64,000 nucleotides of DNA from Promethearchaeota archaeon (GTDB lineage Archaea; Asgardarchaeota; Thorarchaeia; Thorarchaeales; Thorarchaeaceae). Positions 2,707 through 49,353 of the stretch are shown piece by piece. Where the stretch lies: contig WJIL01000068.1 of assembly GCA_014730275.1 (NCBI GenBank), positions 87,527 through 151,526 on the forward strand, read 5' to 3'. Within the stretch, counting starts at the first letter, position 1. Each line of letters opens with the position of its first letter. Position numbers and translations under genes: made by a program. Under the pieces are notes generated by a model that was not told the origin of the DNA, did not search any database, and worked only from the letters and a program-made list of their open reading frames with translations.

Positions 2707-2717
2707 ATCAGAAGCCG

Positions 2718-2758
2718 CCTCAACTAGGGATACTGACCCTTTGCGGTCCTAGTTGAGG
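2718..2758. promoter_or_regulatory. Perfect 11-bp inverted repeat CCTCAACTAGG-N19-CCTAGTTGAGG in the atpB 5' leader and downstream of the membrane-protein gene stop. Hairpin or operator.
   Basis: Arms at 2718-2728 and 2748-2758 are exact reverse complements. It lies 12 nt upstream of the atpB start codon. Confidence 0.4.
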
Positions 2759-2793
2759 TATAGTTTTAAGAGTTGCGAACTACCCAGTTGAAA

Positions 2794-3303: not shown

Positions 3304-3337
3304 GGGAAGCTATCTATAGAGAGGAATATAACGGCCC

Positions 3338-3895: not shown

Positions 3896-3950
3896 GTCAT
3901 TGTATCAGGCAAGGGTAGATAAACACACCACGTATGTTCTTAGTGGATAA

Positions 3951-28720: not shown

Positions 28721-28722
28721 AG

Positions 28723-32674: not shown

Positions 32675-34243
32675 TTATTCTCCCTGGCTTCCTTTTCTAT
32701 AGGATTCGAGCAGCAAATCTGGTAGATATAAGGCCTCGATTCCTGTGCCTTGCAGAAGGTCTTTCAGTTGAATTGTACAGAAGGGGCATTCAGTAGTTAC
32801 AAGCTCTGCCCCCGTGTCCAATATATACTCCCGTTTTGTATCAGCGATTTTCATAGAGAGATCCCGTTGTCCAGCTCGTACACCACCACCAGCCCCACAA
32901 CACCGATTCTTGTATGGGTCGTCAATATACTCAATTCCTGGGACCATCTTGAGAATTTCTAGCGGCTCATTGACAACTCCTTGACCTCTGCCCAAGTGGC
33001 AGGGCTCATGATATGTGACTTTCAAATCGAGTTCACCTTTTGGTGGGACCATGTTTTCTTTACCCAGCACCTCAATCAGATATTCGGTAAGGTCCATAAC
33101 CTTGAACTTTGGAGGCTCTCCGCGTTCTTCCTCAATGAGTGGATAGTGGTCTTCCCTCATCGTCTTTCCGCAGCCAGCACATGCAACAATGACTGTGTCG
33201 AAATCCCATTTTTCCATAGCATCTTCAAAAATCTGTGTGGTTTTTCTCGCTGCTTCTTTAGCAGTCTCCATGGCACCCGTTCTGAAGGCAGGACTTGCGC
33301 AGCACCATTGTTCTTTGGGAACCACGACATCGACATTGTTCTGATTAAGAACCTCGATTAGTGCCTCACCCGTATTCTGCATTCTATAATCAATAAGACA
33401 TCCTGTGAAGAACGCTACACGCCCCTGAGGGTTCTCTACGAAGAATTCCTCTGTCTCTATTTCTTCAAGAAGGGGAGTTTCCTTCCGAGATACTGAGCGG
33501 CCGGTTTCCTGCATACGTTCCACGAAAGTCTGTGCCCCCTCTGGGAGTGGATAACCAGCATCTACTGCTTTCGCTCGTAGAAGTTCTACCGCTAGACTTG
33601 GTATCTTAATGTCCTTCGGACAAATGTCCTCACAAAGCTTGCAGGTTGTACAGTAATACACGGATTCGTCAAGAGCCATCGATACTCTGTCTTCAACATC
33701 TCGTGGATCGAGCTCAAGTCGTGCAAGCTGCCGGATAATCATTGGTCCTGCATAATCCCAAGTTTCCTTGATGACCGGACAGTTTGCAATACAAGCGCTA
33801 CATTCGATACATTTCCGAATCTCACGCAGCTTTTCAATCTCACTGGAGTGAATTATCTCAGGGCGTTCTGGTCTTTTATCTCGTGATACATATGGACGAG
33901 TCCGTCGCAGCCTCCCAATAGTTTGTTCTAAATCAACTACCAGGTCCTTTATGACAGGCATCTTATCCATCGGCTCGATAACCAGTTCCTCATCAGGATC
34001 GACCTTTGTCCTGCAGGCAATACGGGCAATTGTGTTTACTGTAACTGCACAGGAACCGCATTGTCCGCCTCTGCATTCCCAGCGGAATGCCAGACTCGAG
34101 TCGTATTTGTCTTGGATGTAAAGAAGTACATCCAGCACGGTCATACCCGGTTCGAATTCTACATCATACTCTTCAAAGTATGGGGCATCATCGACATCAG
34201 GGTTATATCGCTGAACTTTCGTCTTGACAGTTTCCTTGGACAT
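32675..34243 (-). CDS. tfrB: Thiol:fumarate reductase subunit B-like: a succinate dehydrogenase/fumarate reductase Fe-S subunit fused to HdrD-like CCG domains
   Basis: N-terminal [2Fe-2S] (CRGGQCGSC) plus two ferredoxin-type clusters (CIECSACIANCP, CTTCKLCEDICP). C-terminal two Cys-rich CCG motifs (CCASPAF, CCGAGGG). Confidence 0.8.
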   Translation of the reverse strand: MSKETVKTKVQRYNPDVDDAPYFEEYDVEFEPGMTVLDVLLYIQDKYDSSLAFRWECRGGQCGSCAVTVNTIARIACRTKVDPDEELVIEPMDKMPVIKDLVVDLEQTIGRLRRTRPYVSRDKRPERPEIIHSSEIEKLREIRKCIECSACIANCPVIKETWDYAGPMIIRQLARLELDPRDVEDRVSMALDESVYYCTTCKLCEDICPKDIKIPSLAVELLRAKAVDAGYPLPEGAQTFVERMQETGRSVSRKETPLLEEIETEEFFVENPQGRVAFFTGCLIDYRMQNTGEALIEVLNQNNVDVVVPKEQWCCASPAFRTGAMETAKEAARKTTQIFEDAMEKWDFDTVIVACAGCGKTMREDHYPLIEEERGEPPKFKVMDLTEYLIEVLGKENMVPPKGELDLKVTYHEPCHLGRGQGVVNEPLEILKMVPGIEYIDDPYKNRCCGAGGGVRAGQRDLSMKIADTKREYILDTGAELVTTECPFCTIQLKDLLQGTGIEALYLPDLLLESYRKGSQGE

Positions 34244-34259
34244 CGTTATTGGTCCTCCT

Positions 34260-35981
34260 TCATGGTGGCGTGATGCGAGTTATCACGAGATCTTCCTTCC
34301 GGAGCTCGGGTTCCCCGTCTTCGCCTTTTCGAATGACAATATTGTAATAGCCCTTATCATTGCGGTCTGCGTCACTGCGGTAGTGAGCACCTCTGCTGCC
34401 CTTTCGCATGAAAGCAGCTTCAGCGACTAAGCGAGAAGTAATCACCATGTGGCCAAATTCAATAGCCTGATGCCATCCCGGATTGAATCGCTTGATTGGT
34501 ACATCTACTTTGATGTTGGGAACAACCTCTTCTTCAATGCGCTTCAGATCCTCAACAGCTTCTGCGAGACCTTCATCATCTCTGAAAATCTGCACCTTAT
34601 CCCACATCAGACTGGTCAATTCGTCTCGGGCATCAGCTGGCGAAATTCCTTCCTTCCGCCGCAACATCGTCTCAACCCGGCTGAATTCCCCTTTGACATC
34701 GTCAATATCCATTCCGGGGAGACCATGTTCGTTCGCGAATTTGGCTGCATTCTCACCTGCCAGGGCACCGAAAACTTGAGTGTCAGCTAAAGCATTACCA
34801 CCCAAACGGTTTCCACCGTGAAGTCCGCCCATACATTCACCTGCAGCATACAGGCCAGGTAATGTCGATGAAGCGTTCGCATCTACCTTGATGCCGCCCA
34901 TCAAGTGATGAGCCGTGGGTGATACTTGCATAGGCTCTTCGCGGATATCTACTCCAGCGTCACCAAACTGCTCAATCATACTCTCAAGCCGGTATTCGAT
35001 GATTCGCTTTGGTAGATGAGCGATACTGAGGTAAACCCCTCCATCAGGAGATCCACGTCCTTCTCTGACTTCAGTCATGATAGACCTCGCCACTTGGTCT
35101 CGACCAGCCAGCTCCATAACCTTCGGATAGTACTTGTCCATGAAGCGTTCCCCTTCACTATTCAGGAGTATACCACCTTCGCCCCGAACGGCCTCGGTAA
35201 CGAGTCTCCCCTTTGCAGATTCAGGCTTAATCATGCCAGTCGGGTGAAATTGGCACATTTCCATATCAATCATTTCGCAGCCTGCTTCATAGGCCATAGC
35301 ATAACCATCACCGACATCGAGGGCTGCATTGCTTGTGACCTTGAAAATACGACCTGCACCACCTGTGGCCATAACAATTGATTTTGCTCGGAAGACAACA
35401 TAGTCCCCGTACTTGAGATCAATAGCAGTAACTCCTGCAGCTCTGCCGTCCTTCACCAGGATTTTAGTAGCAAACATTTCGTCGAAAACGCGAACAGAGC
35501 TCTTTCGAATCGCTTCGGTAAGTGTGACCATGATTTCTGAGCCTGTGCGGTCTGAAGCATAGGCAGTTCTCCGATAGGTCTGTTTTCCGAATGGGCGCTG
35601 TGCGATTTTGCCCTGTGGAGTTCTATCGAATACTGCACCCATTTCTTCGAGATCGTATATTCGGTCTGGCGCTTCATCAACAAGTATCTCGACTAATTCT
35701 TGGTTGTTGATGTAATTTCCGCCCACAACTGTGTCTTTGAAATGAACTTCAGGATCATCATCAGGATCTACATTTCCGATGGCTACATTCATACCACCTT
35801 CGGCCATGGATGTGTGGGCCTTGCCAAGCATCTCCTTGCTAAGCATAATCACGTCAGCATTGTGCTGTTCTGCTTCAATAGCGGCACGACAGCCAGCACC
35901 ACCAGCACCTACAACCAAAACATCGCATAATATTGTCTTATAACTAGGTGAATCTTCCAAACAAAAGCCTCCGATGGCCAA
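34260..35981 (-). CDS. tfrA: Thiol:fumarate reductase / fumarate reductase flavoprotein subunit
   Basis: VLVVGAGGAGCRAA FAD fold, QFHPTG, HHLMGG, RLGGNALAD. SdhA/FrdA family. Confidence 0.85.
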   Translation of the reverse strand: MAIGGFCLEDSPSYKTILCDVLVVGAGGAGCRAAIEAEQHNADVIMLSKEMLGKAHTSMAEGGMNVAIGNVDPDDDPEVHFKDTVVGGNYINNQELVEILVDEAPDRIYDLEEMGAVFDRTPQGKIAQRPFGKQTYRRTAYASDRTGSEIMVTLTEAIRKSSVRVFDEMFATKILVKDGRAAGVTAIDLKYGDYVVFRAKSIVMATGGAGRIFKVTSNAALDVGDGYAMAYEAGCEMIDMEMCQFHPTGMIKPESAKGRLVTEAVRGEGGILLNSEGERFMDKYYPKVMELAGRDQVARSIMTEVREGRGSPDGGVYLSIAHLPKRIIEYRLESMIEQFGDAGVDIREEPMQVSPTAHHLMGGIKVDANASSTLPGLYAAGECMGGLHGGNRLGGNALADTQVFGALAGENAAKFANEHGLPGMDIDDVKGEFSRVETMLRRKEGISPADARDELTSLMWDKVQIFRDDEGLAEAVEDLKRIEEEVVPNIKVDVPIKRFNPGWHQAIEFGHMVITSRLVAEAAFMRKGSRGAHYRSDADRNDKGYYNIVIRKGEDGEPELRKEDLVITRITPP

Positions 35982-36015
35982 TCGTTTTCACTTTGACATC
36001 GGTCTATGGAGGCGC

Positions 36016-36022
36016 TATATAA
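36016..36022 (-). promoter_or_regulatory. TATA-like box (TATATAA) about 35 nt upstream of the tfrA start. Suggests tfrAB has its own promoter.
   Basis: Seen in sequence. The palindromic hairpin GGGACAGTCCC at about 36055-36065 follows the stop of the upstream sdhA-like gene. Confidence 0.3.
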
Positions 36023-36118: not shown

Positions 36119-37831
36119 TCAGGCAAATAGGTCGAGGCGCCGCTTGAACGGTTTCTCTTTGCCGTAGCCAGTGGCTTTCATGGTATTCTGTCCGAGATAG
36201 TTGGGGAGGATGATGGGGGTCCTACGCTCAGTCTCTATACCAGCTTTCTCCAGTTCCTTAGAATACCTATCGAGATGGGCAAGAGAAAGATCAGATTTCT
36301 TTGGCATTTTTGCCTTCTTCGCATGCTTGGCCGCGCTTATGCCGGACTTGCGACCAAATACAACGATTTCCAGCCATGAGTTGCCCATCAGACGGTTGTC
36401 GCCATGAACACCACCCGTGGTTTCACCAGAGGCGAAGAGGTTCTCAATCGGGCTGCCGTCGGGTTTCACAACCTGAGTCTCGCGATTGATTGCGATTCCA
36501 CCATTCTGATAGTGGAGTGTGGGATGCACCAAAACAGGGTATTCTGTCGGGTCAATACCAAAACGTGTGAAAAGGCGGTAGATAGCAGCAAGGCCGTCTT
36601 CGAGTGCTCCTTCACCGCGCTTCTCATCAATCATCGGGGTATCGAGCCAAATCCCATCTTGACCCGTGGGAGTAGTAATACCTCTTCCTTCCCCGATTTC
36701 TTTCAATTCTGCCGCAGATTCGACGTCTCGTGGCTCCAATGGATAGATGAAAGCCTCGCCATCATCATTAACCAGCTGGGCTCCCATACTTCTGCACTTT
36801 TCTGTGACTAGCAAACCAACGATTTGCTCAGGGTACGCCGCACCAGTGGGATGATATTGGGTTGATTGCATGTGGATGATATCTGCGCCCACTCTATAAG
36901 CTGAAACCAATCCGTCACAGGTCGCTGCATAGTGGTTAGTGGTAGGAAAGCCAGCAACATGTAGCCGACCAAAGCCACCTGTTGCAATGACGGTAGCCTT
37001 TGAACGTACTACATGATATTCTTCGGTTTCCATGTTCCATAGTAGTCCACCAGCGACAGCACCACTCCCATCCGTTAGAAGAGATACGGTGGGACAAAAC
37101 TCAAGGGTGTTAACATCGCGGCTAAGCGCTTCATCCATAAGGACTCTGGTCAGTTCAAGGCCGGTATAGTCCTTGCAACTGTGTATTCGCTTCCGTGAAG
37201 CACCTCCTGCCATGAGAAGCTGCATATCTCCATCCTGTTCCTTATCGAATGTAGCTCCCAGTGATTCAAGCCATTTGATTGCGAGTGGGCCCTTCTCAAC
37301 TAGGTCTCGAGCCAGCGGCCGGTCATTTGTCCAGTGGCCCCCAGACAAGACATCAAGCCAGTGAATCATTGGAGAATCATCCTCTCCATCGCACGCCTGT
37401 ATGCCGCCTTGGCTCATTTTGCTGTTAGAGTCACCCAATCGAAGGGCAGTCGAAACAAGGATGTCTTCCATTGCTATCCCTTCGTTATTCGCCCAGAGGA
37501 TAGCAGAAAGACCGGCTCCACCAGTGCCAATCACAAGAAGCTCCGTGCTGTACTCTACTTCGGACAAATCTACATCAGCAGGATCCACACGGGGATAGGC
37601 CTCCAAGACATTTGCAACCTCTGTTGGCACGACTTTCCCTTTTGCCGGGCCGATAGCTAGTTCCCGGAAGAAAGCAGGATCCGATTTCCTATAGTCGGGA
37701 TGCCATTGTCTCAGAAGCTCGTCGGATTCCTCCTCCGGAATCCTGTCGAACTCCATGTCTTTGCGTTCATCTCTGGTAGCATTGACTCGCCTTACTGATT
37801 CCATCATATGTTCCGGATATGGGTCTGTCAT
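36119..37831 (-). CDS. Second SdhA/FrdA-family flavoprotein with an N-terminal extension of about 100 aa
   Basis: LLVIGTGGAGLSA at about residue 100, HYAATCDG, QYHPTG, HPTLHYQNGG, DNRLMGNSWLEIVVFGR. Last gene of the hdr-mvh unit. Confidence 0.8.
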   Translation of the reverse strand: MTDPYPEHMMESVRRVNATRDERKDMEFDRIPEEESDELLRQWHPDYRKSDPAFFRELAIGPAKGKVVPTEVANVLEAYPRVDPADVDLSEVEYSTELLVIGTGGAGLSAILWANNEGIAMEDILVSTALRLGDSNSKMSQGGIQACDGEDDSPMIHWLDVLSGGHWTNDRPLARDLVEKGPLAIKWLESLGATFDKEQDGDMQLLMAGGASRKRIHSCKDYTGLELTRVLMDEALSRDVNTLEFCPTVSLLTDGSGAVAGGLLWNMETEEYHVVRSKATVIATGGFGRLHVAGFPTTNHYAATCDGLVSAYRVGADIIHMQSTQYHPTGAAYPEQIVGLLVTEKCRSMGAQLVNDDGEAFIYPLEPRDVESAAELKEIGEGRGITTPTGQDGIWLDTPMIDEKRGEGALEDGLAAIYRLFTRFGIDPTEYPVLVHPTLHYQNGGIAINRETQVVKPDGSPIENLFASGETTGGVHGDNRLMGNSWLEIVVFGRKSGISAAKHAKKAKMPKKSDLSLAHLDRYSKELEKAGIETERRTPIILPNYLGQNTMKATGYGKEKPFKRRLDLFA

Positions 37832-38577
37832 TATTCTTCACCGCCATTCTGGTCGAGACTGAATTCATTGCCAGCGCGCACATCGAGGAAGAGCTCCCGA
37901 ATCCGATCTTCAGGTAGTTCAATTAGTTCATCCATCTGATCATCATATTGGCCTTCCTCAATTTCACTAACACGTTGGGTAACATGTTCCGCCTTTGGCT
38001 GGATATATTTTCCATAAAGCCGGCGAACAAGTTGAAACACATGGTAGTGGGTGATTTCCGCAGGACATCTTGCAGAGCAAGCACCACAGGATATACAATC
38101 AAAACTCAGGTCGGCTGCCTTCTCAAGATCACCCCGCCGTATCGCTTGGATTGCCCTCATTGGCTCCAAATTCTGTGGACAAGCTTGTGTGCAGGTATTA
38201 CAAGAAACGCATCGGGTTATCTCAGGAAATATGCGGATAACTTCCTCAGAAGTGGCCTCTAGTTCATCTAAGTCCCATTCGGGTTTCCGAGCGGGAACAA
38301 AAGGTAACTGAACAAGATACATACCATCTTCCACTTTTGTTTGACATGCTAGGTCGATATAGAGTTTGTAATCATCCTTTTTTCTGTAAATCGTGGTACA
38401 AGCACCACAATAACCACCCCGACAACCCACACCTCTAATGAGCCGATAGCCTGCATATTCTTGTGCCTGCATTATCGTAAGCTCACTTGGCACTTCGTAT
38501 GGTTTTCCCATTATGTAGATTGTTGCCATTTCACTCTCGGGTCGGTCTTTCTTCTCAACTTCTTGATTTTGTGACAT
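37831..38577 (-). CDS. SdhB/FrdB-like iron-sulfur subunit (unfused)
   Basis: [2Fe-2S] CRGGYCGAC, plus CVSCNTCTQACP and CISCGACSARCP ferredoxin motifs. Start overlaps the stop of the flavoprotein gene. Confidence 0.8.
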   Translation of the reverse strand: MSQNQEVEKKDRPESEMATIYIMGKPYEVPSELTIMQAQEYAGYRLIRGVGCRGGYCGACTTIYRKKDDYKLYIDLACQTKVEDGMYLVQLPFVPARKPEWDLDELEATSEEVIRIFPEITRCVSCNTCTQACPQNLEPMRAIQAIRRGDLEKAADLSFDCISCGACSARCPAEITHYHVFQLVRRLYGKYIQPKAEHVTQRVSEIEEGQYDDQMDELIELPEDRIRELFLDVRAGNEFSLDQNGGEE

Positions 38578-38581
38578 GTAA

Positions 38582-39445
38582 TCAACTCCCTTGTAGATTC
38601 TTCAAAACCAATTCTTCCCTTTCGGGTGATAAGTATGAATCAACTTCCAAAGCCATTGCAAGAACCTGTGTGAAGAATAGAACGGGCACATCCTTGCCCA
38701 AGTTCTCCACTCCAAGTCCAAGATTGTATGTACACAGAGGGCATGGAGAAATAATCAGGTCTGCCCCCGCTGAAACAGCGGATTCAACTATCGCTTTGCT
38801 TCGAATCTCTACAATTTCTTTTCTGAAAGCAGCGTGATAGTTTCCGCAGCATTCCATCTTGTAGGGGTAGTCAACTGATGTAGCCCCTATTGCACGGATG
38901 AATTCTTCAATAATCGTAGGGCTTTCACGTTTGTCAACAGCAACATCCTCAGGCCTCAATAGAGCACAACCATAATAGGGTGCAATCTTCAAATCTGAAA
39001 GCGGATTAGTGATTTTGTCGAAGATTGTGTCAAAGCCTATCTTATCTCGGAGTAATTGGAGGAAATGAGAAACCTCAAGATTTCCTTTGTAATTTGGTGC
39101 GTCGTCTATGTAATCATTCACGTTCTCACGGGTATCTTGTTCTGTTTTCAATGCAATATTAGTTCGTTTCAGAACATTGTAACACATAGAGCACAGAGTA
39201 GTAATCTCATTACCTGCTGTTGAACTAAGCTCTTCTTGTGCATCTATCAAGGTACGAACTGCTCCAAGATGGCGCATAATGTTATCAGAAAGACTGAAGT
39301 TAACACCACAGCAGTTCCACTCAGGTATCTCTTCCAGTTCTATGTCCAGCTTCTTACAAACCTCTAGAGCACTCTTTTCGAACTCAGGATAGCTATTTCT
39401 AAGACTACAACCGGGATAGTAGATTACGCGTATCACGATTACCAC
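38582..39445 (-). CDS. hdrB: Heterodisulfide reductase subunit B-like (two CCG domains)
   Basis: CCGVNFS... and ...CCGNYHA CCG-domain cysteine patterns. 287 aa. Confidence 0.85.
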   Translation of the reverse strand: MVIVIRVIYYPGCSLRNSYPEFEKSALEVCKKLDIELEEIPEWNCCGVNFSLSDNIMRHLGAVRTLIDAQEELSSTAGNEITTLCSMCYNVLKRTNIALKTEQDTRENVNDYIDDAPNYKGNLEVSHFLQLLRDKIGFDTIFDKITNPLSDLKIAPYYGCALLRPEDVAVDKRESPTIIEEFIRAIGATSVDYPYKMECCGNYHAAFRKEIVEIRSKAIVESAVSAGADLIISPCPLCTYNLGLGVENLGKDVPVLFFTQVLAMALEVDSYLSPEREELVLKNLQGS

Positions 39446-39810
39446 GTCAGTTTCTGTGCTGCTGCGGTCAAAGCAATTTGCGGCAAATCCTTGAGATTCT
39501 CTATCTTTCTCAAATCTATTGTTTCATAACCCCGCTCTCGGATTCTAAGCTCTCTAAGTGACTCCATTACGGCTGCAACATCGACACCACGTGGACATCG
39601 CACCGAACAAGTAAAACAACTAGCACAAATCCATGGGGTCTCATTGTCAAGCACGCTTTCGTCACCCCGTTGGATATACATGAGTACTTGATGCGGCAAT
39701 AGATCCATATGAGCAGTAAAAAGGCAACCTGCAGAACACTTGCCACACTGATAGCAAGCATCTACATTCACGCCAGATATCTCACTTATCCGTTCTTCCA
39801 ATTCATTCAA
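39439..39810 (-). CDS. hdrC: Heterodisulfide reductase subunit C-like (2x[4Fe-4S])
   Basis: CYQCGKCSAGC and CASCFTCSVRCP motifs. 123 aa. Overlaps the hdrB start. Confidence 0.75.
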   Translation of the reverse strand: MNELEERISEISGVNVDACYQCGKCSAGCLFTAHMDLLPHQVLMYIQRGDESVLDNETPWICASCFTCSVRCPRGVDVAAVMESLRELRIRERGYETIDLRKIENLKDLPQIALTAAAQKLTW

Positions 39811-40373
39811 GCTGATTCACCTGTTAATTCGCATTGTATCAAATTGAGCAAGTTGTTAATTCCTGTTTCAAGTTCATAGGTAATTTCGTTGGTCATCTCT
39901 GGGTTATTGATACACAGACCGTATACAATTACACGGCTAGGAAATCGTAGAGGATAGAGTTCTCTGTAAATCTTCAAAACATCAAGGATACTAGCTGTAT
40001 GCGGAGTAAGCATGCTTAGGGGTTTCTGATCAGCGAGCCCGGTAAACCGGATAATCTCGCCAGATTCTCTATCTGTACCTACAAAAGCGTCTATCAAAAC
40101 AGCTCGGTCATAGCCTAAGAACCGCTCTGCAACAGAGAAGGGTGAAGAGGATGACCATGCCACCTCAACGGTGCTAGGCAGGTTGCATTCATTAAGCTGT
40201 CGGGCGGCTTGAATGCCTGCAGCGTCATCTCCGAATATCGGGTTACCCCATCCATAGATTATGGTCTTCTGCTCTTGAATAGGTTTGGTTACGGTAACTG
40301 CTAATTCGTTCCCCTCCTTATTCGCCGTATCACATTTCCATCGGAATCGCGGAATACTAGTTCCAATGGGCAT
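39807..40373 (-). CDS. Hydrogenase maturation endopeptidase (HycI/FrhD/HyaD family)
   Basis: GWGNPIFGDDAAGI motif. Located immediately after mvhA, which carries a C-terminal extension beyond DPCLSCSTH. Confidence 0.8.
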   Translation of the reverse strand: MPIGTSIPRFRWKCDTANKEGNELAVTVTKPIQEQKTIIYGWGNPIFGDDAAGIQAARQLNECNLPSTVEVAWSSSSPFSVAERFLGYDRAVLIDAFVGTDRESGEIIRFTGLADQKPLSMLTPHTASILDVLKIYRELYPLRFPSRVIVYGLCINNPEMTNEITYELETGINNLLNLIQCELTGESA

Positions 40374-41788
40374 CTACCAGGCAAAGAGTGAGTTGAACAT
40401 GAAAGACAGGGATCATAGGCCCGATATGCCATCTCAACGCGGTTCAGAATTCCTTCAGAAACATCGCCATTGTGCACCAAAGCCTCAGCTGCTTTTCTCA
40501 CGTCCAAGGATATTGCTGCATTATTCATGGTAGTAGGTACTATCAAGTTGGCTGAAGTGATTCGTCCCTTTTTATCAGCCTTGTAGTGATGAATCAATGT
40601 GCCCCGTGGAGCTTCAACACACCCAACACCCTCGCCTGTGAAACTACCATCCTTACTTCGGGGAGTTCCATGAATGATGTCGGGATCATCAAGTATCTCA
40701 AGCATCCGCTCAATGTTGTATACTGATTCAATTAATCGAGCCCAATTATAACCTAGAGTAGCATGAGCGGGTTTGCCTAGCGTATCAATGAATTCCTCGT
40801 ATGCCTCCTGAGCAAGAGGGGTTGGCATTCCATCTGTCACGTTTAACCGAGGTAAGGCATTCACTCGGTAGATGCCACTCTCTTCTCCATCAGCAAAACC
40901 CTTCCAACCGATGTTTTTCAGGTAGGGGAATTTCGAATAGCTCCATGGTTGGCTGACTTCCTCTATGTGGTCAAGGTAATCATTCGGTGAGAATGTGAAA
41001 CTATCATCTCCGCTAGGATTGATGACTTTCAGATTTCCGTCATAGAAATTCATCTGGTCGTTTTCATCAACGAGCCCCATATAGTAGGTTTCAAGCCGAT
41101 ACATGTTACCGAAGAACAAATCATGATACTTCTCGTTCTCGATAATATTTGATTTGAAGAAATCGTGGAAATCTAGCGTAAATTCCAAGATTTCCTTTGA
41201 CATCTCTTCAATAGTGTTTCTCTCTTCCTCGGTTATGAGTCGAGATACTCCTCCAGGTAGGGCGATGACCGGATGAACAGCCTTCCCTGCTATGATTTCT
41301 TGGATTTTTTCTGCATCAGCATGGTACTTGAGAGCATCTTTTGCTATGTCCGGGTGTTCCTGAAGCAATCCAATGATATTCCGAGTTGAGGGTTCACTAT
41401 TTTCGGAGAGAAAGAAGTCAGGGGAAGCTAAAACGAAGAAGTGTAGAAGATGTGAATGCAAATTGTGAGCATTATAGGATAACTCCCGTAGCTTCTTGCT
41501 AGCAGGTGTTGGCTCTAATCCGAAAAGCTGATCCATAGCTTTGGCAGCAGACATATGATGAGCCCAAGAACAAACACCACAAACCCGTGATGCAATCCGT
41601 GGTACTTCTTCTGCTTGCCGTCCCTTTAGAAAGCCTTCAAAGCCACGGTAATCAAGCACTTGGAAGTAGGCATTCTTCACATTGCCTTCATCATCAAGAA
41701 TGATATTGATTTTCCCCTCACCCTCAAGACGGGTACAAGGTTGAATCCTGATGATTTCATCGTCAGATCCTATGTCTAGTTCGGTCAT
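40301..41788 (-). CDS. mvhA: [NiFe] hydrogenase large subunit, F420-non-reducing (Mvh/Vhu type)
   Basis: N-terminal RVCGVCSWAH and C-terminal DPCLSCSTH nickel-binding motifs, followed by a cleavable extension of about 28 aa. Confidence 0.9.
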   Translation of the reverse strand: MTELDIGSDDEIIRIQPCTRLEGEGKINIILDDEGNVKNAYFQVLDYRGFEGFLKGRQAEEVPRIASRVCGVCSWAHHMSAAKAMDQLFGLEPTPASKKLRELSYNAHNLHSHLLHFFVLASPDFFLSENSEPSTRNIIGLLQEHPDIAKDALKYHADAEKIQEIIAGKAVHPVIALPGGVSRLITEEERNTIEEMSKEILEFTLDFHDFFKSNIIENEKYHDLFFGNMYRLETYYMGLVDENDQMNFYDGNLKVINPSGDDSFTFSPNDYLDHIEEVSQPWSYSKFPYLKNIGWKGFADGEESGIYRVNALPRLNVTDGMPTPLAQEAYEEFIDTLGKPAHATLGYNWARLIESVYNIERMLEILDDPDIIHGTPRSKDGSFTGEGVGCVEAPRGTLIHHYKADKKGRITSANLIVPTTMNNAAISLDVRKAAEALVHNGDVSEGILNRVEMAYRAYDPCLSCSTHSLPGRCPLELVFRDSDGNVIRRIRRGTN

Positions 41789-41794
41789 CGTATA

Positions 41795-42775
41795 TCATTT
41801 CTCCTGATGTTTTCTGTTGATTATTGCCACTGGAAGTGCAAACCTGTAGAAGAGTCCAACCGGATCGATAAACCCTTCCGACAGAAGACGCATGAGCTCC
41901 TCTTCACTGATTTGTTTCTCTTTGCCCAACATAATCGATGAAGCTATACTCGAAAGGAATTTTGTTCCTTGGTCGCGTATCTTTGGCGTTGGACCAAAGC
42001 ATCCACGGCAGGGCATATTCCTATACGTGCACCGGGGTTCGTCTCCACATCCAGCCCGCGTTACTGGACCAAGACAGAGAACACCCTGACTCAAAAAGCA
42101 CTCCTCTTCGTTTAAGTCGCTCTCATGAACTCTCATTACTTTGTCAATCGAGATTTTGTCAGGCTTTTCTCGTTCGCAGTACTCACATACTGTCCCTTCT
42201 TTCGCAAGGAAAAGAGCATCCGGAATGTTGCCATTCTCACGGTAGTCTCTTACGAAATCAATCAAATCAATTACAGATTGTACAGGGGGAGGACAGCCAG
42301 GAACAAATACATCGAATTCTACCAAATCTGCGGGAGAAGATGTATAATCCCGTAGCTCGGGCATTTTCAGTTCTTCGATTGTGATTTCTTCAAGGCTAGG
42401 AACACCTTCAGCTCTCGTATTAGGAGCGTTGGAATATGCAGTTGTAAGAAGTGATTCCTTCGTTTCTACATTTCCTAAACCAGGAATCCCTCCGTAACAT
42501 GAACAGGTACCGAAGGCAACAAGGACATCAGATTTTTCCTCCAGAAGACGCAGAACAGTCTCATGTTCATCCGTTCTGACTGCTCCGAAGTACACACCAA
42601 CGTCAATGTTTTTGACAGCCTCTAATTGTTCAATCTTGCCATCTACAACAGCTGGCCAGTACACAATCTCTGCAATCTCAGCCAAATCCGCGAGTTTCGT
42701 ACCTACATCTGTGAAAGCAACATCACAGCCGCCACAGATTGATCCATATCCTACAGCCAGTTTTGCTTTCTTCAT
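41795..42775 (-). CDS. mvhG: [NiFe] hydrogenase small subunit (Mvh/Vhu type)
   Basis: GSICGGC proximal cluster motif, GTCSCYGG, and overall small-subunit Cys pattern. Confidence 0.9.
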   Translation of the reverse strand: MKKAKLAVGYGSICGGCDVAFTDVGTKLADLAEIAEIVYWPAVVDGKIEQLEAVKNIDVGVYFGAVRTDEHETVLRLLEEKSDVLVAFGTCSCYGGIPGLGNVETKESLLTTAYSNAPNTRAEGVPSLEEITIEELKMPELRDYTSSPADLVEFDVFVPGCPPPVQSVIDLIDFVRDYRENGNIPDALFLAKEGTVCEYCEREKPDKISIDKVMRVHESDLNEEECFLSQGVLCLGPVTRAGCGDEPRCTYRNMPCRGCFGPTPKIRDQGTKFLSSIASSIMLGKEKQISEEELMRLLSEGFIDPVGLFYRFALPVAIINRKHQEK

Positions 42776-43200
42776 TGCACTACCTCACTCTGTTCCATGA
42801 CAAAGGGTCCAAGATCACGCAATTCATCAGTAAATGCACTAATTGTCTCAGCGAATTTTCGGCCCTCGCTAGCGCTAATCCAGTCTAAACGGACACGCTT
42901 CGGATTCACTCCCATCTGCTTTAGGAAAGTTTTGAGAACAGTAATCCGTTTGAAGGCCTGATAATTTCCGCGAATATAGTGACAGTCATTGGGAGTGTGA
43001 CATCCTGCGATGAGAACACCATCGGATTCTCGTAGTGCCTCAAGGATATGAGACAAGTCGATCCTTCCAGTACACGGAAAGCGCACTGGAGTCACGGTTG
43101 GGGGATACTTAATTCGACTTGTTCCCGCCATATCGGCACCAGCATATCCGCACCATTTGCACAAGAAAGCAGTTATCTTTGGTTCGAAAGTCATCATCAT
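42772..43200 (-). CDS. mvhD: Methyl-viologen-reducing hydrogenase delta subunit
   Basis: 142 aa. FLCKWCGY...PCTGR...AGCHTPNDCHY MvhD Cys pattern. Overlaps the hdrA stop. Confidence 0.9.
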   Translation of the reverse strand: MMMTFEPKITAFLCKWCGYAGADMAGTSRIKYPPTVTPVRFPCTGRIDLSHILEALRESDGVLIAGCHTPNDCHYIRGNYQAFKRITVLKTFLKQMGVNPKRVRLDWISASEGRKFAETISAFTDELRDLGPFVMEQSEVVQ

Positions 43201-45182
43201 AACCCTCCAGTGATAGCATGAATCATGTCCATAGCCTGTCTATCGGTCATGTTGATTAGCTCGATAGCTCCAGCTGGGCATGTTGATGCACATGAGCCAC
43301 AGCCTTCACATAGCACATCTTCTACTTTCGCTTTACCATTATCCATTGAAATCGCGCCATACGGACATACATTCACACATAATCGACAGCCGGAACAGAG
43401 GTCCCGCTCGATACGTGAGACCATCGGAGGATGTGATATCTGATCGTGTGATAGAAGATCCAGTGCTTTACTAGCTGCTCCACTAGCCTGAGCTACTGTG
43501 GTCTGGATGTCTTTGGGACCATGTGCCAACCCAGCAACAAAGATGCCAGAAGTGGGAGACTCGACAGGCCTCAATTTCGGATGTTCTTCTTTTATCCAGC
43601 CATATTCATCATACTGAGCCCCCAACTTGGTTGCCAGGTCTCTTACACCCTTTGGAGCAACCATGCTCAAAGCTAGTACAACCATATCGAAGTCTTCTTC
43701 CAACCGCTCCCCTTTCAGTGTGTCAACTCCAAATACAGTAACCTTTCCATCCTGCTCAAAAATCTTGGAAACCTTGCCGCGAATATAGTTGACTCCCGCA
43801 TCCTCGCGAACCCGATTGATGAACTGCTCGTAGTTCTTTCCGGAAGCTCTCAAATCGATGTAGAAATTGCATACCTCAGCATTTGGATAATGTTCATGGA
43901 AAAGCAGAGCATGTTTACTTGAATACATACAACAGATTGCCGAGCAGTAATCATTATGATTCTCATCCCGTGAGCCAGCACAATGAATGAAAGCTATTTT
44001 TTCGGGTATTTTTCCATCACTTGGACGTCGAGGAATACCACTTGTCGGACCGTTTGGCGACAGCAATCGCTCGAATTGCAATGATGTAATGACGTCAGGA
44101 TATGTACCTGCGCCGTATTCTCCGATATTCTTGGGAGAATACATCTCATAACCCGTTGCTACAATCATTACTCCTACGTCTTCTTCAACAATCTCGGGCT
44201 TCTGATCATAATCAATTGCATCTGCTTCACAGACTTCTTGACACTTGGAGCAAACTATGTGTTTCATTCCCTTAGGATTCAAACACGCGTCAATATCGAT
44301 TGTGTAAGTAGAAGGAATTGCTTGGGGGAATGGTATGTAAATTGGTCTTCGAAATGTAAGGCCTTCGTCAAAATCAGATAATGTAAACTCCGGACATACA
44401 TCTTCGCACTCAGCACAGAGATTACACGCATCTGGGTCGATATAGGTGGGGTTTTTTCGAATCTTTACATGGAAATTGCCAACATAGCCTTCAACATCCA
44501 CTACTTCTGAAGATGTAAGCAACTTGATATTCGGATGGTTGGCAACTTCCGACATGCGTGGTGTTAGTATGCATGATGCACAGTCGAGTGTCGGAAATGT
44601 TTCTGCTAGTTTGGCCATATGTCCCCCAATTGTAGATTCTTTCTCAACCAGAAGTACCTCGTGACCGGCATCAGCAATATCAAGCGCTGCCTGAATACCG
44701 GCTATTCCCCCACCGATAACTAGGGCTCTTCGATGAAGGTCAACCTGAATAGAATCTAGTTCCTCATTGGAGGCAACTTTTTCAATCATAGTTCTGGCAA
44801 TTCGCACCGCTTTATCTGTCGCCTTCATTCGGTCTTCGTGTACCCATGAGTCTTGTTCGCGTATGTTTGCGATTTCACATTTGTAGCGGTTCATACCGGC
44901 TCGTTCAACCACATCACGAAAAGTGCGCTCATGAAGGGATGGAGAACAAGCTGCGACCACTACAGAAGTGAGATCGTGTTCATTTATGGCGTTCTGAATA
45001 AGTTCTTGGCCAGGTTGGCTGCACATATAGTCATAGTCTTCACTATGCACAACAGAGGGGTGTTTACCAATTCGTGCAGCTACCTCTTCAACATCTACCG
45101 TCTCAGCAATGTTTCTGCCGCAGTGACACACAAATACGCCAATTCTCTCATCGGGTTTTTTCTCGTTATCTGTCAAACTCAC
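43197..45182 (-). CDS. hdrA: Heterodisulfide reductase subunit A (FAD, multiple Fe-S; bifurcating flavoprotein family)
   Basis: VFVCHCGRNI N-terminal cluster, ALVIGGGIAGIQAA FAD site, two ferredoxin domains (CNLCAECEDVCP, CSGCRLCVNVCP, CEGCGSCASTCP). GTG start with a GGAGAG SD. Confidence 0.9.
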   Translation of the reverse strand: MSLTDNEKKPDERIGVFVCHCGRNIAETVDVEEVAARIGKHPSVVHSEDYDYMCSQPGQELIQNAINEHDLTSVVVAACSPSLHERTFRDVVERAGMNRYKCEIANIREQDSWVHEDRMKATDKAVRIARTMIEKVASNEELDSIQVDLHRRALVIGGGIAGIQAALDIADAGHEVLLVEKESTIGGHMAKLAETFPTLDCASCILTPRMSEVANHPNIKLLTSSEVVDVEGYVGNFHVKIRKNPTYIDPDACNLCAECEDVCPEFTLSDFDEGLTFRRPIYIPFPQAIPSTYTIDIDACLNPKGMKHIVCSKCQEVCEADAIDYDQKPEIVEEDVGVMIVATGYEMYSPKNIGEYGAGTYPDVITSLQFERLLSPNGPTSGIPRRPSDGKIPEKIAFIHCAGSRDENHNDYCSAICCMYSSKHALLFHEHYPNAEVCNFYIDLRASGKNYEQFINRVREDAGVNYIRGKVSKIFEQDGKVTVFGVDTLKGERLEEDFDMVVLALSMVAPKGVRDLATKLGAQYDEYGWIKEEHPKLRPVESPTSGIFVAGLAHGPKDIQTTVAQASGAASKALDLLSHDQISHPPMVSRIERDLCSGCRLCVNVCPYGAISMDNGKAKVEDVLCEGCGSCASTCPAGAIELINMTDRQAMDMIHAITGGL

Positions 45183-45586: not shown

Positions 45587-45630
45587 AAAAAAAAGCAAGA
45601 TTAGTAGCAGGGAAGCGATGTCCCTGCTAC
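45587..45630 (-). terminator. Intrinsic-terminator-like structure for the fumarase operon: 10-bp perfect stem (GTAGCAGGGA/TCCCTGCTAC) followed on the minus strand by a T8 run
   Basis: Stem at 45604-45613/45621-45630. A8 on the + strand at 45587-45594. Lies 30 nt past the fumB stop. Confidence 0.45.
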
Positions 45631-45659: not shown

Positions 45660-46268
45660 CTACTCTTCTACACCAATTATCGAGTACACTTCTGCCTTTT
45701 TTGTACTGACTTGGTCATCTGCATCATCATGCAGGCTGTTACCATGGGAGTCCATAGTTACCATGAGTGGTCCGAATTCCTCGGCTGTGATTACCCATAA
45801 AGCTTCAGGCATCCCAAGATCTGACCATTCATAAGCTCGAACCTCCTTTAGCCCTCGAGCAGCAAGAGCTCCACAACCTCCAGTAAAACTGCAGTAAACC
45901 GCTCCAACCTCCTTTAGAGCCGCCAGTGTTCTATCAGCCATACCACCTTTCCCGATGATAACACGAGCTTTATAGTTCCGTAAGAACTCATCCTCGAAGA
46001 TTTCCATTCGAATACTCGTCGTTGGGCCAGCGGAAACAATATTCCATTCTCCGTCCTTCTTCTGCGCAACTGGACCTACGTGATAGACAACACTGCCTTC
46101 AAATTCGACAGGGGGTTTCTCTCCCTTTTCATACATCTCAAGCGCGCGCTCGTGGGCCTCATCTCTAGCAGTATAGACGTGTTCACCGCTCACATAGATG
46201 ACATCGCCAACCTTTAGCTTGCGAGCTTCTTCTTCTGAAATCGGTGTAGTTAGATGATACTCTGCCAT
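45660..46268 (-). CDS. fumB: Class I (Fe-S) fumarate hydratase, beta subunit
   Basis: 202 aa. CSFTGGCGALAARGL and overall FumB/TtdB similarity. Confidence 0.85.
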   Translation of the reverse strand: MAEYHLTTPISEEEARKLKVGDVIYVSGEHVYTARDEAHERALEMYEKGEKPPVEFEGSVVYHVGPVAQKKDGEWNIVSAGPTTSIRMEIFEDEFLRNYKARVIIGKGGMADRTLAALKEVGAVYCSFTGGCGALAARGLKEVRAYEWSDLGMPEALWVITAEEFGPLMVTMDSHGNSLHDDADDQVSTKKAEVYSIIGVEE

Positions 46269-46269
46269 T

Positions 46270-47157
46270 TTACTTACCCTCCAATGGATGCGTGATATAT
46301 TCTACTTTGAGATCCTTCGAAATAGTAGCTGTGCTCCGTCTCGCAGCCCAGCATTGTACGGCAACTCCAACTGGAAGGCTAGCCGGATGGCGCATAGCAT
46401 AGTCCACCTTTACATCGAGAACAGTGGTCTTACCACCAAGCCCCATTGGGCCGATGCCTGTTGCGTTCAAAGCCTCAATAAGTTCCTCCTCGATTTCTGC
46501 TACTTCAGGTTCGGGGTGCCTTTGATTAAGTGGACGTAACAACTGCTTCTTTGCTATCTTCAAACTAATATCGGCCCCACCGCCAATTCCAACACCGATG
46601 ATATTCGGGGAGCATGCCTTGCCCATGTAATCCATGGCATTATCAACAACTAGCTTCTTTACACCTGCTAGACCGACACCGGGTTTCAGCATTCCAACAA
46701 TGCTTACATTCTCACTACCTCCACCTTTAGGAAATGCAGTAATCTCCAGGGAATCACCAGGTACTAATTCCCAGTTGAGCCATGGGATTTTCTCACCAGT
46801 GTTGTCTCCCGAATTACCTCCAACGATAGGATTCACGGCATTGGGTCTGAGTGGAACGTTCTCAGTTGCCTTCCTCGTCGCTTTCGCTAATGCATCCTCT
46901 ACTTCACTCAAGTAAGGGAAATCGTATCCTGCCTTCAAATAAAAAATCATTATGCCAGTATCTTGGCACATGGGTACACCAGTTGATGCGATTTCCAGAT
47001 TCTTGAGGATAGCAGACAATTGCGTCTTCGCGTTTTCGTTTGTCTCACGCTCATATGCTTCGCGAAGCGCCGTTTCAACTTCATCGGGCAACTCCGTTGC
47101 AGCTTTCGTGAGCAAACGAACTGTAGCGTCTGTGATTACCTGCTGCGGGTCCTTCAT
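46270..47157 (-). CDS. fumA: Class I (Fe-S) fumarate hydratase, alpha subunit
   Basis: 295 aa. GVPMCQDTG and FumA/TtdA pattern. 1-nt gap to fumB. Confidence 0.85.
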   Translation of the reverse strand: MKDPQQVITDATVRLLTKAATELPDEVETALREAYERETNENAKTQLSAILKNLEIASTGVPMCQDTGIMIFYLKAGYDFPYLSEVEDALAKATRKATENVPLRPNAVNPIVGGNSGDNTGEKIPWLNWELVPGDSLEITAFPKGGGSENVSIVGMLKPGVGLAGVKKLVVDNAMDYMGKACSPNIIGVGIGGGADISLKIAKKQLLRPLNQRHPEPEVAEIEEELIEALNATGIGPMGLGGKTTVLDVKVDYAMRHPASLPVGVAVQCWAARRSTATISKDLKVEYITHPLEGK

Positions 47158-47929: not shown

Positions 47930-48640
47930 TTACGCCTCAACCCTGATGCCATTCTCAGAGATTACGAATCTGTGCTTCTTCATGCTATGTGCAGTTCTTC
48001 GCATCTTCCAGATCAATAGATTTCGATTGAGCTTGTCATTGATTATGTCAAGATCCAAGAGAATCAAACCCTGGGTAACGAATTCCTCAACTCCAGTTCG
48101 GCTGAGTGCATTTGGGGTCGTAGTGTCGCAAACCAAAATTGAGGTTACACCAAGCTGTCGAAGAAGCGCACTCAGTTTGTATATCTCTTTTCGAACATTA
48201 GAAGTCTCATCGAAGTTCATATTCAGAGCGGATAAGCTATCTATAACAACCCGATTTGCTCGTACTTCTTCAACAGCATCGTAGATTTCTTGTGCGAGTG
48301 TGCTCAAATCAAAGCCGCGCCTTAAGGCATGAGTCTCTGAAGTTGGCAATCCTGCCTTGCTGGAAGCGGCATCAATCATTACGAGTGTTTCTTCTTGTTC
48401 TAGTGTTCCGATATCCCAATTGAATTGGAGTGCTTCTGCTCTTAGTTCGTCAGGTCTAGATTCAAGCGTAACGAAAACACCTGATTCATCATAGTTTCGA
48501 GCTCCCATACAAAGAAACTGAAGCCCAAAAACTGTTTTCCCAGATCCCGCCGGTCCAGAGAGTAATATGGAGCTGCCTTCTACGAGACCTCCTTCTACTA
48601 GCTCATCGAGGCCTGGAATGCCAGTCTTGACCCGCTTCAT
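47930..48640 (-). CDS. KaiC/RecA-superfamily ATPase (single KaiC-like domain)
   Basis: GIPGLDELVEGGL...LLSGPAGSGKT Walker A, Walker B VVIDSLSAL. 236 aa. Confidence 0.75.
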   Translation of the reverse strand: MKRVKTGIPGLDELVEGGLVEGSSILLSGPAGSGKTVFGLQFLCMGARNYDESGVFVTLESRPDELRAEALQFNWDIGTLEQEETLVMIDAASSKAGLPTSETHALRRGFDLSTLAQEIYDAVEEVRANRVVIDSLSALNMNFDETSNVRKEIYKLSALLRQLGVTSILVCDTTTPNALSRTGVEEFVTQGLILLDLDIINDKLNRNLLIWKMRRTAHSMKKHRFVISENGIRVEA

Positions 48641-49128: not shown

Positions 49129-49353
49129 GCGTCCAAGACCCCAATGCAGGCAGCATGCTGCTGAGCAGATAATCCCCTTAGTCAGTAGCCTATTAAGGGT
49201 TGCCCGATTCGCAACAAAACACAAGGGGATTGAGAGATTCGCGTTTCATCGCAGGTATAATGTGAAGGCCTCAGTTTTTGCAAGATTGAAGATACAAGGG
49301 GTAACAATTCGCAATTTGTGAAACAAATACAAATCACGAACTGAAAGTGGAAT

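Follow-up and report, generated by a model that had tools for sequence, protein, structure and literature searches.

What does a hydrogenase-linked heterodisulfide reductase reduce when its genes are joined to those of a fumarate-reductase-like flavoprotein? This question is raised by a locus of a Promethearchaeota archaeon (Thorarchaeaceae; contig WJIL01000068.1 of assembly GCA_014730275.1, positions 87,527 to 151,526), of which the whole stretch of 64,000 nucleotides (nt) was analysed and is referred to here as the window. A total of nine co-directional open reading frames (ORFs) were found on the minus strand of the window at 36119-45182, in the order hdrA, mvhD, mvhG, mvhA, a hydrogenase maturation endopeptidase gene, hdrC, hdrB and the genes of two proteins that we name FeS (a 2Fe-2S/2x[4Fe-4S] protein) and Flav (a flavoprotein of the SdhA superfamily). 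The gene content and the tight coupling of this unit, hereafter the Thor operon, are established, and the gene content bears out the original prediction of a complete Mvh/HdrABC set combined with an unfused flavoprotein/Fe-S pair in one operon. The reading that we prefer, with a probability of roughly 45%, is that the operon would encode a cytoplasmic, quinone-independent H2:fumarate oxidoreductase built around HdrA as the bifurcation hub and co-reducing ferredoxin. A more specific proposal, which we hold somewhat more tentatively, is that the products would assemble into one soluble supercomplex, with the non-cubane clusters of HdrB as an electron relay instead of a disulfide-reducing site. 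Electrons from H2, or from NAD(P)H in the Flx-type relatives, would then pass by bifurcation straight to fumarate and ferredoxin, and no thiol carrier would take part.

The domains of the nine proteins were called by profile searches with Pfam and NCBIfam. The first gene, hdrA (43197..45182), encodes an FAD/Fe-S flavoprotein of 661 amino acids (aa) that is presumed to be the electron-bifurcating hub, and is followed by mvhD (42772..43200; 142 aa; PF02662 FlpD, 158 bits), the product of which is a [2Fe-2S] adaptor from the hydrogenase to HdrA. The small and large subunits of the [NiFe]-hydrogenase are encoded by mvhG (41795..42775; 326 aa; PF01058, 69 bits) and mvhA (40301..41788; 495 aa; PF00374, 124 bits) respectively, and the endopeptidase by an ORF with a longest possible product of 188 aa (39807..40373; TIGR00072, 74.5 bits with a cutoff of 47.45). 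The remaining genes encode a short HdrC-like 2x[4Fe-4S] ferredoxin (39439..39810; 123 aa; NF041779, 67 bits), an HdrB-like protein (38582..39445; 287 aa; PF02754 twice; TIGR03288, 155 bits), FeS (37831..38577; 248 aa) and Flav (36119..37831; 570 aa). Overlaps of 4 nt join hdrA to mvhD, mvhD to mvhG and the protease gene to hdrC, with further overlaps of 7 nt at hdrC/hdrB and 1 nt at FeS/Flav, and gaps of 6 nt and 4 nt separate mvhG from mvhA and hdrB from FeS. The predicted positions of the nine ORFs and their junctions were confirmed on the minus strand. The accompanying claim that the joints measure 7 nt or less throughout holds for all of them but the mvhA/protease joint, where the longest protease ORF overlaps mvhA by 73 nt and the start is uncertain. 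Spacers of 477 nt upstream and 137 nt downstream bound the unit, and fumarate-related genes are found beyond both.

HdrA starts with a GTG codon preceded by aggagag and was found to match the methanogen HdrA (8rvu_a) over its full length (670 bits, query residues 7-656), including the FAD domain and the inserted and C-terminal ferredoxin domains, although its NF040770 score of 825 bits lies under the model cutoff of 1100. The hydrogenase subunits likewise score below the equivalog cutoffs of their Vhu models (VhuA 381, VhuG 169 and VhuD 118 bits for MvhA, MvhG and MvhD respectively). The motifs RVCGVCSWAH and DPCLSCSTH (RxCGxC and DPCxxCxxH) can be read in the translation of MvhA, which continues for 28 residues beyond the DPCxxCxxH motif. 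HdrB contains two complete CCG motifs with ten cysteines (C13...C45C46...C85xxC88 and C160...C199C200...C234xxC237), the ligands of two non-cubane [4Fe-4S] clusters. It scores 131 bits against the HdrB of 8rvv_B and 129 bits against the SdhE-type MFR anchor model, and is 90% identical to a 'Promethearchaeia' protein. In HdrC both cluster motifs are kept, and the protein aligned only to positions 26-120 of the 198 in NF041779; a short HdrC is usual in related clusters (median 134 aa, n=35).

The endopeptidase retains GxGNP, D49/D50, D95 and H125, all of which were invariant in an alignment with five homologues. These homologues start three to four residues ahead of GxGNP, about 37 residues later than the longest ORF, and no ATG, GTG or TTG start was found for this gene 3' of the mvhA stop. 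The protein therefore has either an unusually long N-terminus or a non-canonical ATA/ATC start, and its true start is uncertain. The 28-residue tail of MvhA accounts for the presence of this protease, the role of which is ordinary hydrogenase maturation.

The identity of Flav to FrdA, SdhA and NadB of E. coli is no more than about 30-33%, and that to a TfrA-like protein encoded directly downstream of the unit is 33%. PF00890 (221 bits) is its only Pfam domain, and it falls below every curated NCBIfam cutoff, with 273 bits of a required 718 for TfrA (NF004900), 270 of 567 for sdhA_frdA (TIGR01812) and 236.5 of 452.75 for nadB (TIGR00551). Its residues H327, T343/E344, R368, H440 and R480 correspond to His232, Thr244/Glu245, Arg287, His355 and Arg390 of FrdA (E. 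coli numbering checked), and two alignments showed these catalytic residues to be invariant within the family and in E. coli FrdA, SdhA and NadB. By this measure the fumarate/succinate active site is intact, and the complete catalytic set upholds the description of Flav as fumarate-reductase-like. At the position of the covalent-FAD residue His44 of FrdA (R-S-H-T), Flav carries Asn136 (D-S-N-S), which is invariant in the family; a non-covalent FAD is typical of fumarate-reducing rather than succinate-oxidising enzymes. An N-terminal extension of 95 residues is family-specific and well predicted (pLDDT about 80-94). At the other end of the protein the Pfam search gave no match to Succ_DH_flav_C (PF02910), and in the alignment the chain stops about 90-130 residues short of FrdA, SdhA and the TfrA-like protein. 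An AlphaFold2 model of moderate confidence (pLDDT 73, pTM 0.79) had E. coli FrdA (1kf6_A) as its best fold match (E 2e-27, 29% identity), and flavocytochrome c3 of Shewanella and chains of SdhA were also among the best matches (about 29% identity). On these grounds Flav is predicted to be a divergent soluble flavoprotein of the fumarate reductase/succinate dehydrogenase type with non-covalently bound FAD.

L-aspartate oxidase had been named in advance as one of the families against which Flav should be tested. The position of E. coli NadB Glu121, which we take to recognise the amino group, is occupied by Ala208 in Flav, by Ala or Gly across the family and by Phe in FrdA and SdhA. This substitution and the sub-cutoff TIGR00551 score separate Flav from NadB, and no NAD-biosynthesis genes were found among the recurrent neighbour families of Flav loci; this candidate was ruled out.

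FeS has twelve invariant cysteines (C52/57/60/78, C123/126/129/133 and C161/164/167/171) that make up a plant-type 2Fe-2S motif and two CxxCxxCxxxCP motifs, and its chain runs from an N-terminal plant-type [2Fe-2S] domain through a helical 2x[4Fe-4S] domain that is HdrC/RnfC-like to a helical tail at the C-terminus. It had been called SdhB-like, which is correct for the cofactor layout but not for the family: the TIGR00384 match reaches 38.8 bits with a cutoff of 88 and covers residues 118-147 only, and no SdhB or FrdB chain occurs in its top 50 Foldseek matches. The Pfam match is to Fer2, not to Fer2_3, and with the TfrB model NF004898 (cutoff 385) FeS and HdrB, which are separate genes, score 35.7 and 36.4 bits respectively. 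Weak alignments relate FeS to the TfrB-like protein next door over the N-terminal half of the latter (27% identity) and its ferredoxin domain to HdrC, the likeness to HdrC being seen in the fold search as well. The AlphaFold2 model (pLDDT 77, moderate confidence) gave fold matches at the level of domains only, namely to RnfC, the N-terminus of NuoG/HydA and HdrC, with TM scores of about 0.2-0.4. Neither a CCG domain nor any other recognisable thiol-oxidising site was found in FeS by Pfam, NCBIfam or the cysteine alignment.

The closest relatives of both proteins are Thorarchaeota proteins (77% identity for Flav and 92% for FeS), and the two families remain 55-58% identical across the domains of life, where they are publicly annotated as 'FAD-binding protein' and '4Fe-4S dicluster domain-containing protein' respectively. 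Judged by these comparisons, Flav and FeS form a distinct, highly conserved family apart from SdhA/SdhB, TfrAB and NadB. The assignment of the pair to SdhA/SdhB is accordingly given up, as Flav belongs to a separate family of about 30% identity that has no covalent-FAD histidine and no Succ_DH_flav_C domain and carries the 95-aa extension. Both TfrAB and classical SdhAB were ruled out by the curated cutoffs, the missing histidine and C-terminal domain, and the fold search.

The distribution of the pair was studied by scanning a one-genome-per-species collection, in which at least 600 matched stretches were found, at least 599 of them encoding a relative of Flav. All locus counts given here refer to the best 80 of these at least 599 stretches, which represent more than 20 phyla and in which ORFs were called and searched by phmmer with the window proteins; they are lower bounds, as contig ends fall within many of the loci. 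The archaeal carriers are Thermoplasmata, Bathyarchaeota, Heimdall-, Thor- and Borrarchaeota, Theionarchaea, Thermococci, Desulfurococcales and Culexarchaeia, and the bacterial ones Bipolaricaulota/Acetothermia, WOR-3, Cloacimonadota, Anaerolineae, Dehalococcoidia, Spirochaetota, Aminicenantes, Thermodesulfobacteriota and gut Bacillota. FeS lies directly upstream of Flav in 76 of the 80 loci (median gap 4 nt) and is thus an obligate partner of Flav. The gene directly upstream of FeS is hdrB in 38 loci (38/72 where at least 1.5 kb upstream of FeS is available), with a median gap of 6 nt. HdrB and HdrC were each found in 59/80 loci, HdrA in 52/80, MvhD in 39/80 and MvhA, marking the MvhAG donor, in 19/80. 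An Flx-like NAD(P)H donor set, consisting of an NAD_binding_1/DHODB Fe-S protein, a 330-aa Fer4 protein and MvhD, was present in 23/80 loci. The constant part is therefore hdrC-hdrB-FeS-Flav plus hdrA, and the donor module changes; donors that swap between MvhAG and the Flx-like set around a constant hdrCB-FeS-Flav are the pattern expected of an acceptor module on a bifurcating hub.

The window itself holds this hdrC-hdrB-FeS-Flav cluster with hdrA-mvhDGA upstream and fumarase beyond. Its closest relative, a Thorarchaeota metagenome-assembled genome (MAG; GCA_004524435.1, locus L081), keeps an identical nine-gene block between unrelated genes, and the order hdrA-mvhD-mvhG-mvhA ... hdrC-hdrB-FeS-Flav recurs in ten of the 80 loci, from six phyla, so the arrangement is not a product of chance. 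This recurrence across phyla strongly argues for a functional link; a synteny search had been proposed as a check. The protease between mvhA and hdrC, originally regarded as atypical, recurs as well: it lies in this place in four of the ten loci that share the order, and an endopeptidase follows mvhA in six of the 19 MvhA loci (phmmer), in L081 and in a Korarchaeota locus discussed below (L086).

The remaining neighbour ORFs were clustered and representatives of the clusters scanned. Most common were the alpha and beta subunits of a 2-oxoacid:ferredoxin oxidoreductase (KorA/KorB; 31/80 loci), followed by fumarase alpha/beta within 10 kb of Flav (17/80), succinyl-CoA synthetase (SucCD; 13/80), malic enzyme (11/80), an Asp-Al_Ex permease (8/80) and glutamate dehydrogenase (7/80). 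As read from these genes, the context is a route from malate through fumarate, succinate, succinyl-CoA and 2-oxoglutarate to glutamate. No candidate gene for a thiol carrier recurs among the neighbours of the 80 loci.

A variant was observed in MAGs of gut Bacillota (loci L045, L049, L062, L069, L075, L078 and similar ones), in which the order is hdrB-hdrC-hdrA-mvhD, a 330-aa Fer4 protein, an NAD-binding Fe-S protein in two copies, and FeS-Flav; genes for fumarase alpha/beta and for a permease of the Asp-Al_Ex family often come next. This operon has the look of a version driven by NAD(P)H, and the human and animal gut bacteria that carry it may be culturable.

The genes on both sides of the Thor operon, all on the minus strand, are also concerned with fumarate. 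Upstream of hdrA lie the alpha (46270..47157; PF05681, 309 bits; NF004885, 325 bits with a cutoff of 276) and beta (45660..46268; PF05683, 157 bits; TIGR00723, 210 bits with a cutoff of 145) subunits of a class I (Fe-S) fumarate hydratase. A hairpin (gtagcaggga...ttccctgctac) with a T8 run at 45587..45630, 30-70 nt after the stop of the beta subunit and read by eye, would be a terminator-like element parting the fumarase genes from hdrA. The two fumarase genes are predicted to form a separate transcription unit that supplies fumarate from malate. Farther upstream on the same strand, at 47930-49224, the genes of a KaiC-like ATPase (PF06745, 238 bits) and of an AsnC-type HTH protein share 4 nt; the two proteins might regulate the surrounding fumarate genes.

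Beyond the 137-nt downstream spacer lies a canonical flavoprotein of the TfrA/SdhA type (34260..35981; PF00890, 339 bits; PF02910, 89 bits) with the covalent-FAD histidine motif GKAHT, which scores 683 bits with the TfrA model NF004900 (cutoff 718) and passes TIGR01812 with 569 bits (cutoff 567.3). It is followed by a TfrB-type fusion of Fer2_3, Fer4_8 and two CCG domains (32675..34243; NF004898, 533.6 bits with a cutoff of 385). A TATA-box-like TTATATAG at 36015..36022 in the spacer, which precedes the tfrA-like start by about 35-40 nt and was also read by eye, is a possible separate promoter. The region thus reads as a fumarate island in which two different soluble enzymes of the SdhA superfamily stand side by side, and the contrast that had been drawn between an unfused pair here and TfrAB elsewhere overlooks this canonical TfrA and fused TfrB. 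The Thorarchaeota relative L081 has no adjoining TfrAB pair. In a Thermodesulfobacteriota locus (L067, 17256-20813) FeS-Flav is accompanied by a TfrA-like gene, after which an SdhB-like gene and an HdrB-like CCG gene stand unfused, which amounts to a split TfrB. Genes for 2-oxoglutarate:ferredoxin oxidoreductase (OGOR) and succinyl-CoA synthetase (SCS) were not found in the 64-kb window.

In the H2:fumarate oxidoreductase that we propose, MvhAG, with MvhA matured by the co-encoded endopeptidase, would oxidise H2 and MvhD would hand the electrons to the flavin of HdrA, where each pair would be split. The low-potential electron would pass to ferredoxin, and the high-potential electron through HdrC, the non-cubane relay of HdrB and the clusters of FeS (2x[4Fe-4S], then [2Fe-2S]) to the non-covalent FAD of Flav and on to fumarate, giving succinate. 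The net reaction would be 2 H2 + fumarate + Fd(ox) -> succinate + Fd(red) + 2 H+. Fumarate would be derived from malate by the adjoining class I fumarase, and succinate and reduced ferredoxin would enter a reductive branch of the tricarboxylic acid (TCA) cycle through SCS, OGOR and glutamate dehydrogenase; alternatively, the reaction may serve as an electron sink. The OGOR neighbours fit this model, because OGOR uses up the reduced ferredoxin that the model yields, and the natural TfrB fusion next door indicates that an SdhB-type Fe-S chain and a CCG protein can form one electron path. The H2 potential is -414 mV. With an E0' of +33 mV for fumarate/succinate (PMC5861303), the span between the two couples would provide ample driving force for the reduction of ferredoxin. 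We infer a single transcript, a physical complex, the direction of electron flow, bifurcation and the role of HdrB as a relay rather than a disulfide reductase.

Several observations weigh against this reading. HdrB retains all ten cysteines of the heterodisulfide-reducing site, which makes a catalytic thiol/disulfide role possible, and the TfrA and fused TfrB pair 137 nt downstream is suited to a thiol shuttle. In 14 of the 80 loci FeS-Flav has no Hdr gene within reach, and the Korarchaeota locus L086 (ENA ERZ23486261, 1-8870) shows the reverse case, namely korABG-hdrA-mvhD-mvhG-mvhA-protease-hdrC-hdrB with no adjoining FeS-Flav, even though its HdrB (55% identity) is among the closest homologues outside the Thor-like group. 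The notion that HdrB orthologues always track FeS-Flav is ruled out by this locus, and its OGOR within the Mvh-Hdr operon suggests that the Hdr block may act directly for OGOR in some lineages. For each of FeS, Flav and HdrB, the top 120 homologues include no fusion of FeS with HdrB or with Flav, the Foldseek results leave FeS with no whole-chain tie to SdhB, the models of Flav and FeS are only moderate in confidence, and a literature search turned up no biochemical characterisation of Hdr-linked FeS-Flav clusters.

The alternative that survives best is a thiol-mediated coupling as in Methanothermobacter, which we regard as a lesser but serious possibility. Mvh-HdrABC would then reduce a heterodisulfide, another disulfide or a protein disulfide, FeS-Flav and/or TfrAB would re-oxidise the thiols, and the operon would reflect co-regulation. 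The complete CCG cysteines of HdrB, the occurrence of Mvh-Hdr blocks and FeS-Flav pairs apart from each other, and the TfrA/TfrB genes directly downstream all agree with this scheme, and because of the last point the thiol-mediated route stays open in the source organism. It is also the default assumption in papers on Asgard and other MAGs, in which a shuttle of coenzyme M (CoM) and coenzyme B (CoB) is assumed (PMC9723677, PMC9635834; also PMC8542988). Against it stands FeS, which has no recognisable thiol-oxidising site, and the use of thiols by FeS-Flav alone is therefore not expected. The commonest arrangement, in which hdrB immediately precedes FeS at a median of 6 nt, and the lack of a recurring carrier candidate in the neighbourhoods also weigh against it. 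Furthermore, many of the carriers are bacteria for which no synthesis of CoM or CoB is known (to our knowledge, those in Bacillota, Anaerolineae, Spirochaetota and WOR-3 make neither), and CoM-S-S-CoB, the mixed disulfide of the two, is therefore not a general intermediate. For the Thor operon as well, the terminal acceptor is probably fumarate and not CoM-S-S-CoB.

It is unlikely, in our estimate, that FeS-Flav is merely co-located with Mvh-Hdr and acts as a stand-alone soluble fumarate reductase dependent on ferredoxin or NAD(P)H, or as some other enoate or amino-dicarboxylate enzyme. The loci with no Hdr in reach are compatible with independence, and a soluble five-subunit NADH-fumarate reductase with FrdA and FrdB of similar size exists in Hydrogenobacter/Aquifex (PMC13147460, PMC10052474). 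Since the curated Sdh, Frd, Tfr and NadB models all score Flav below cutoff, its substrate is not assigned by homology. A different substrate is nevertheless opposed by the invariant C4-dicarboxylate catalytic set, by the Ala or Gly in place of NadB Glu121 and by neighbours (fumarase, malic enzyme, SucCD and OGOR) that indicate fumarate/succinate, and independence by the Hdr genes, which were found with the pair in no fewer than 59/80 loci despite truncated contigs.

Reverse operation, in which succinate oxidation and reduced ferredoxin would yield H2 by electron confurcation in fermentative or syntrophic growth, is in our view very unlikely here. In its favour, H2 evolution by Mvh-HdrABC has been proposed for the cultured Asgard archaeon MK-D1 (PMC7015854), a coupling of succinate oxidation to H2 has been suggested for SdhA/Hdr clusters of Culexarchaeia (PMC9723716), and Sdh/Frd flavoproteins are reversible in principle. 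Against it, fumarate/succinate (+33 mV) and ferredoxin (about -450 to -500 mV) have a midpoint near -210 to -235 mV by standard potentials, which would be too positive for proton reduction except at extremely low H2, Flav has Asn in place of the covalent-FAD His, and the neighbours (OGOR, malic enzyme, fumarase, glutamate dehydrogenase) fit the reductive branch.

Other genes in the window were recorded in passing. A 543-aa protein (22037-23668, minus strand) gave weak matches to the Sec23/Sec24 trunk, beta-sandwich and VWA domains, all under the gathering cutoffs, and may be a eukaryote-signature protein, which would fit the Asgard origin. A 187-aa protein (32035-32598, plus strand) has a borderline match to the PCI domain (22.9 bits with a cutoff of 22), a domain typical of subunits of the eukaryotic proteasome lid, COP9 and eIF3. 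On the plus strand at 24411-29277, the gene of an SMC protein (1196 aa) precedes two short ORFs of the same direction (240 and 184 aa) that may encode kleisin/ScpB partners. The catalytic A (603 aa) and the B (466 aa) subunits of an A/V-type ATPase are located at the window start (1306-5762, minus strand), and a 766-aa DUF3160 protein (594 bits) at 57516-59816 (minus strand).

Mvh-HdrABC is widespread in non-methanogens such as Asgard archaea, Chloroflexota, Bipolaricaulota, WOR-3 and Cloacimonadota, and genome papers usually enter CoM-S-S-CoB by analogy as its high-potential acceptor. The conserved hdrCB-FeS-Flav core, with its swappable donors and reductive TCA neighbours, makes fumarate a concrete candidate for this acceptor and the four proteins a candidate acceptor module. 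Flav and FeS constitute a large family that no curated model captures, and because their annotation is generic, metabolic reconstructions may overlook them or mislabel them as Sdh or Tfr. Direct wiring, if true, would amount to quinone-free, thiol-free and energy-conserving fumarate reduction and would be a new acceptor class for flavin-based electron bifurcation. It would also tell what Mvh-HdrABC reduces in many lineages that have no CoM-S-S-CoB, Asgard archaea included, and models of Asgard hydrogen and carbon metabolism would change.

Compared with known systems, the Thor operon has six core subunits in common with the MvhADG-HdrABC complex of hydrogenotrophic methanogens (PDB 5odc, 8rvu; group 3c [NiFe]), and presumably flavin-based bifurcation at HdrA as well. 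It differs in its Asgard host, in the scores of all its Hdr and Vhu subunits below the curated equivalog cutoffs, in an HdrC of 123 aa instead of about 185-198 aa, in having a maturation protease inside the operon and no MvhB polyferredoxin, and in the addition of FeS and Flav translationally coupled to hdrB.

The thiol:fumarate reductase TfrAB of Methanothermobacter, reportedly described by Heim and co-workers in 1998, is likewise cytoplasmic and quinone-independent, combines an SdhA-superfamily flavoprotein with a 2Fe-2S/4Fe-4S chain and CCG domains, and serves in a reductive TCA branch. Flav is set apart from it by the TfrA score of 273 bits (cutoff 718) and the missing covalent-FAD histidine, and FeS by the absence of a Fer2_3 match and of fusion to CCG; the genuine TfrAB-type pair of this organism is encoded separately at 32675-35981. 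The type E (non-classical) succinate:quinone reductase/MFR SdhABE also combines an HdrB-like subunit bearing CCG domains with SdhA/SdhB. The HdrB-like protein here reaches 129 bits with the corresponding model (cutoff 500), Flav and FeS lie far below the MFR SdhA/SdhB cutoffs, and the Thor operon has HdrA and a hydrogenase in place of a quinone context.

The soluble NADH-fumarate reductase FrdABCDE of Hydrogenobacter thermophilus and Aquifex, which Miura and co-workers are said to have described in 2008, is quinone-independent as well and belongs to the reductive TCA cycle. Its donor is NADH, and the likeness noted here is one of size and description: FrdA and FrdB of A. aeolicus are 63.9 and 27 kDa (PMC10052474), similar to Flav and FeS. 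An Hdr-like identity of its FrdC, FrdD and FrdE was considered and rejected, as aq_116, nox and dmsB2 are listed for A. aeolicus instead (PMC10052474).

The closest parallels are the published clusters in which fumarate-reductase genes, labelled 'TFR' or 'tfrAB/frdAB', are found among hdrABC, an Flx or Mvh donor module, OGOR, fumarase and SCS, a likeness that rests on the published gene labels. The frdB/frdA-hdrC-hdrB-korDABC-hdrA-flxDCBA clusters of Endoriftia and Thioflavicoccus, which belong to the reductive TCA cycle, were proposed by Rubin-Blum 2019 (PMC6315080, suppl. note 3) to encode a complex bifurcating directly from Flx-Hdr to fumarate reductase and OGOR, the same proposal of bifurcation to fumarate reduction and to ferredoxin for OGOR. 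Mitchell 2024 (PMC11636981) showed co-expression of this reductive TCA cluster, but not of the tfrAB genes themselves, and Williams 2021 (PMC8542988) described a cluster of TFR, OGOR, fumarase, SCS, Mvh and Hdr in Ca. Celaenobacter (Cloacimonadota). Similar clusters and the idea of a direct complex are thus already in print (PMC6315080, PMC8542988). Our set of 80 loci contains both donor types, Flx-like and Mvh, and members from Cloacimonadota. The published clusters are bacterial and include OGOR and SCS, which the Thor window lacks, and the Thor operon is an Asgard, Mvh-driven example of this cluster type, known from genomes only.

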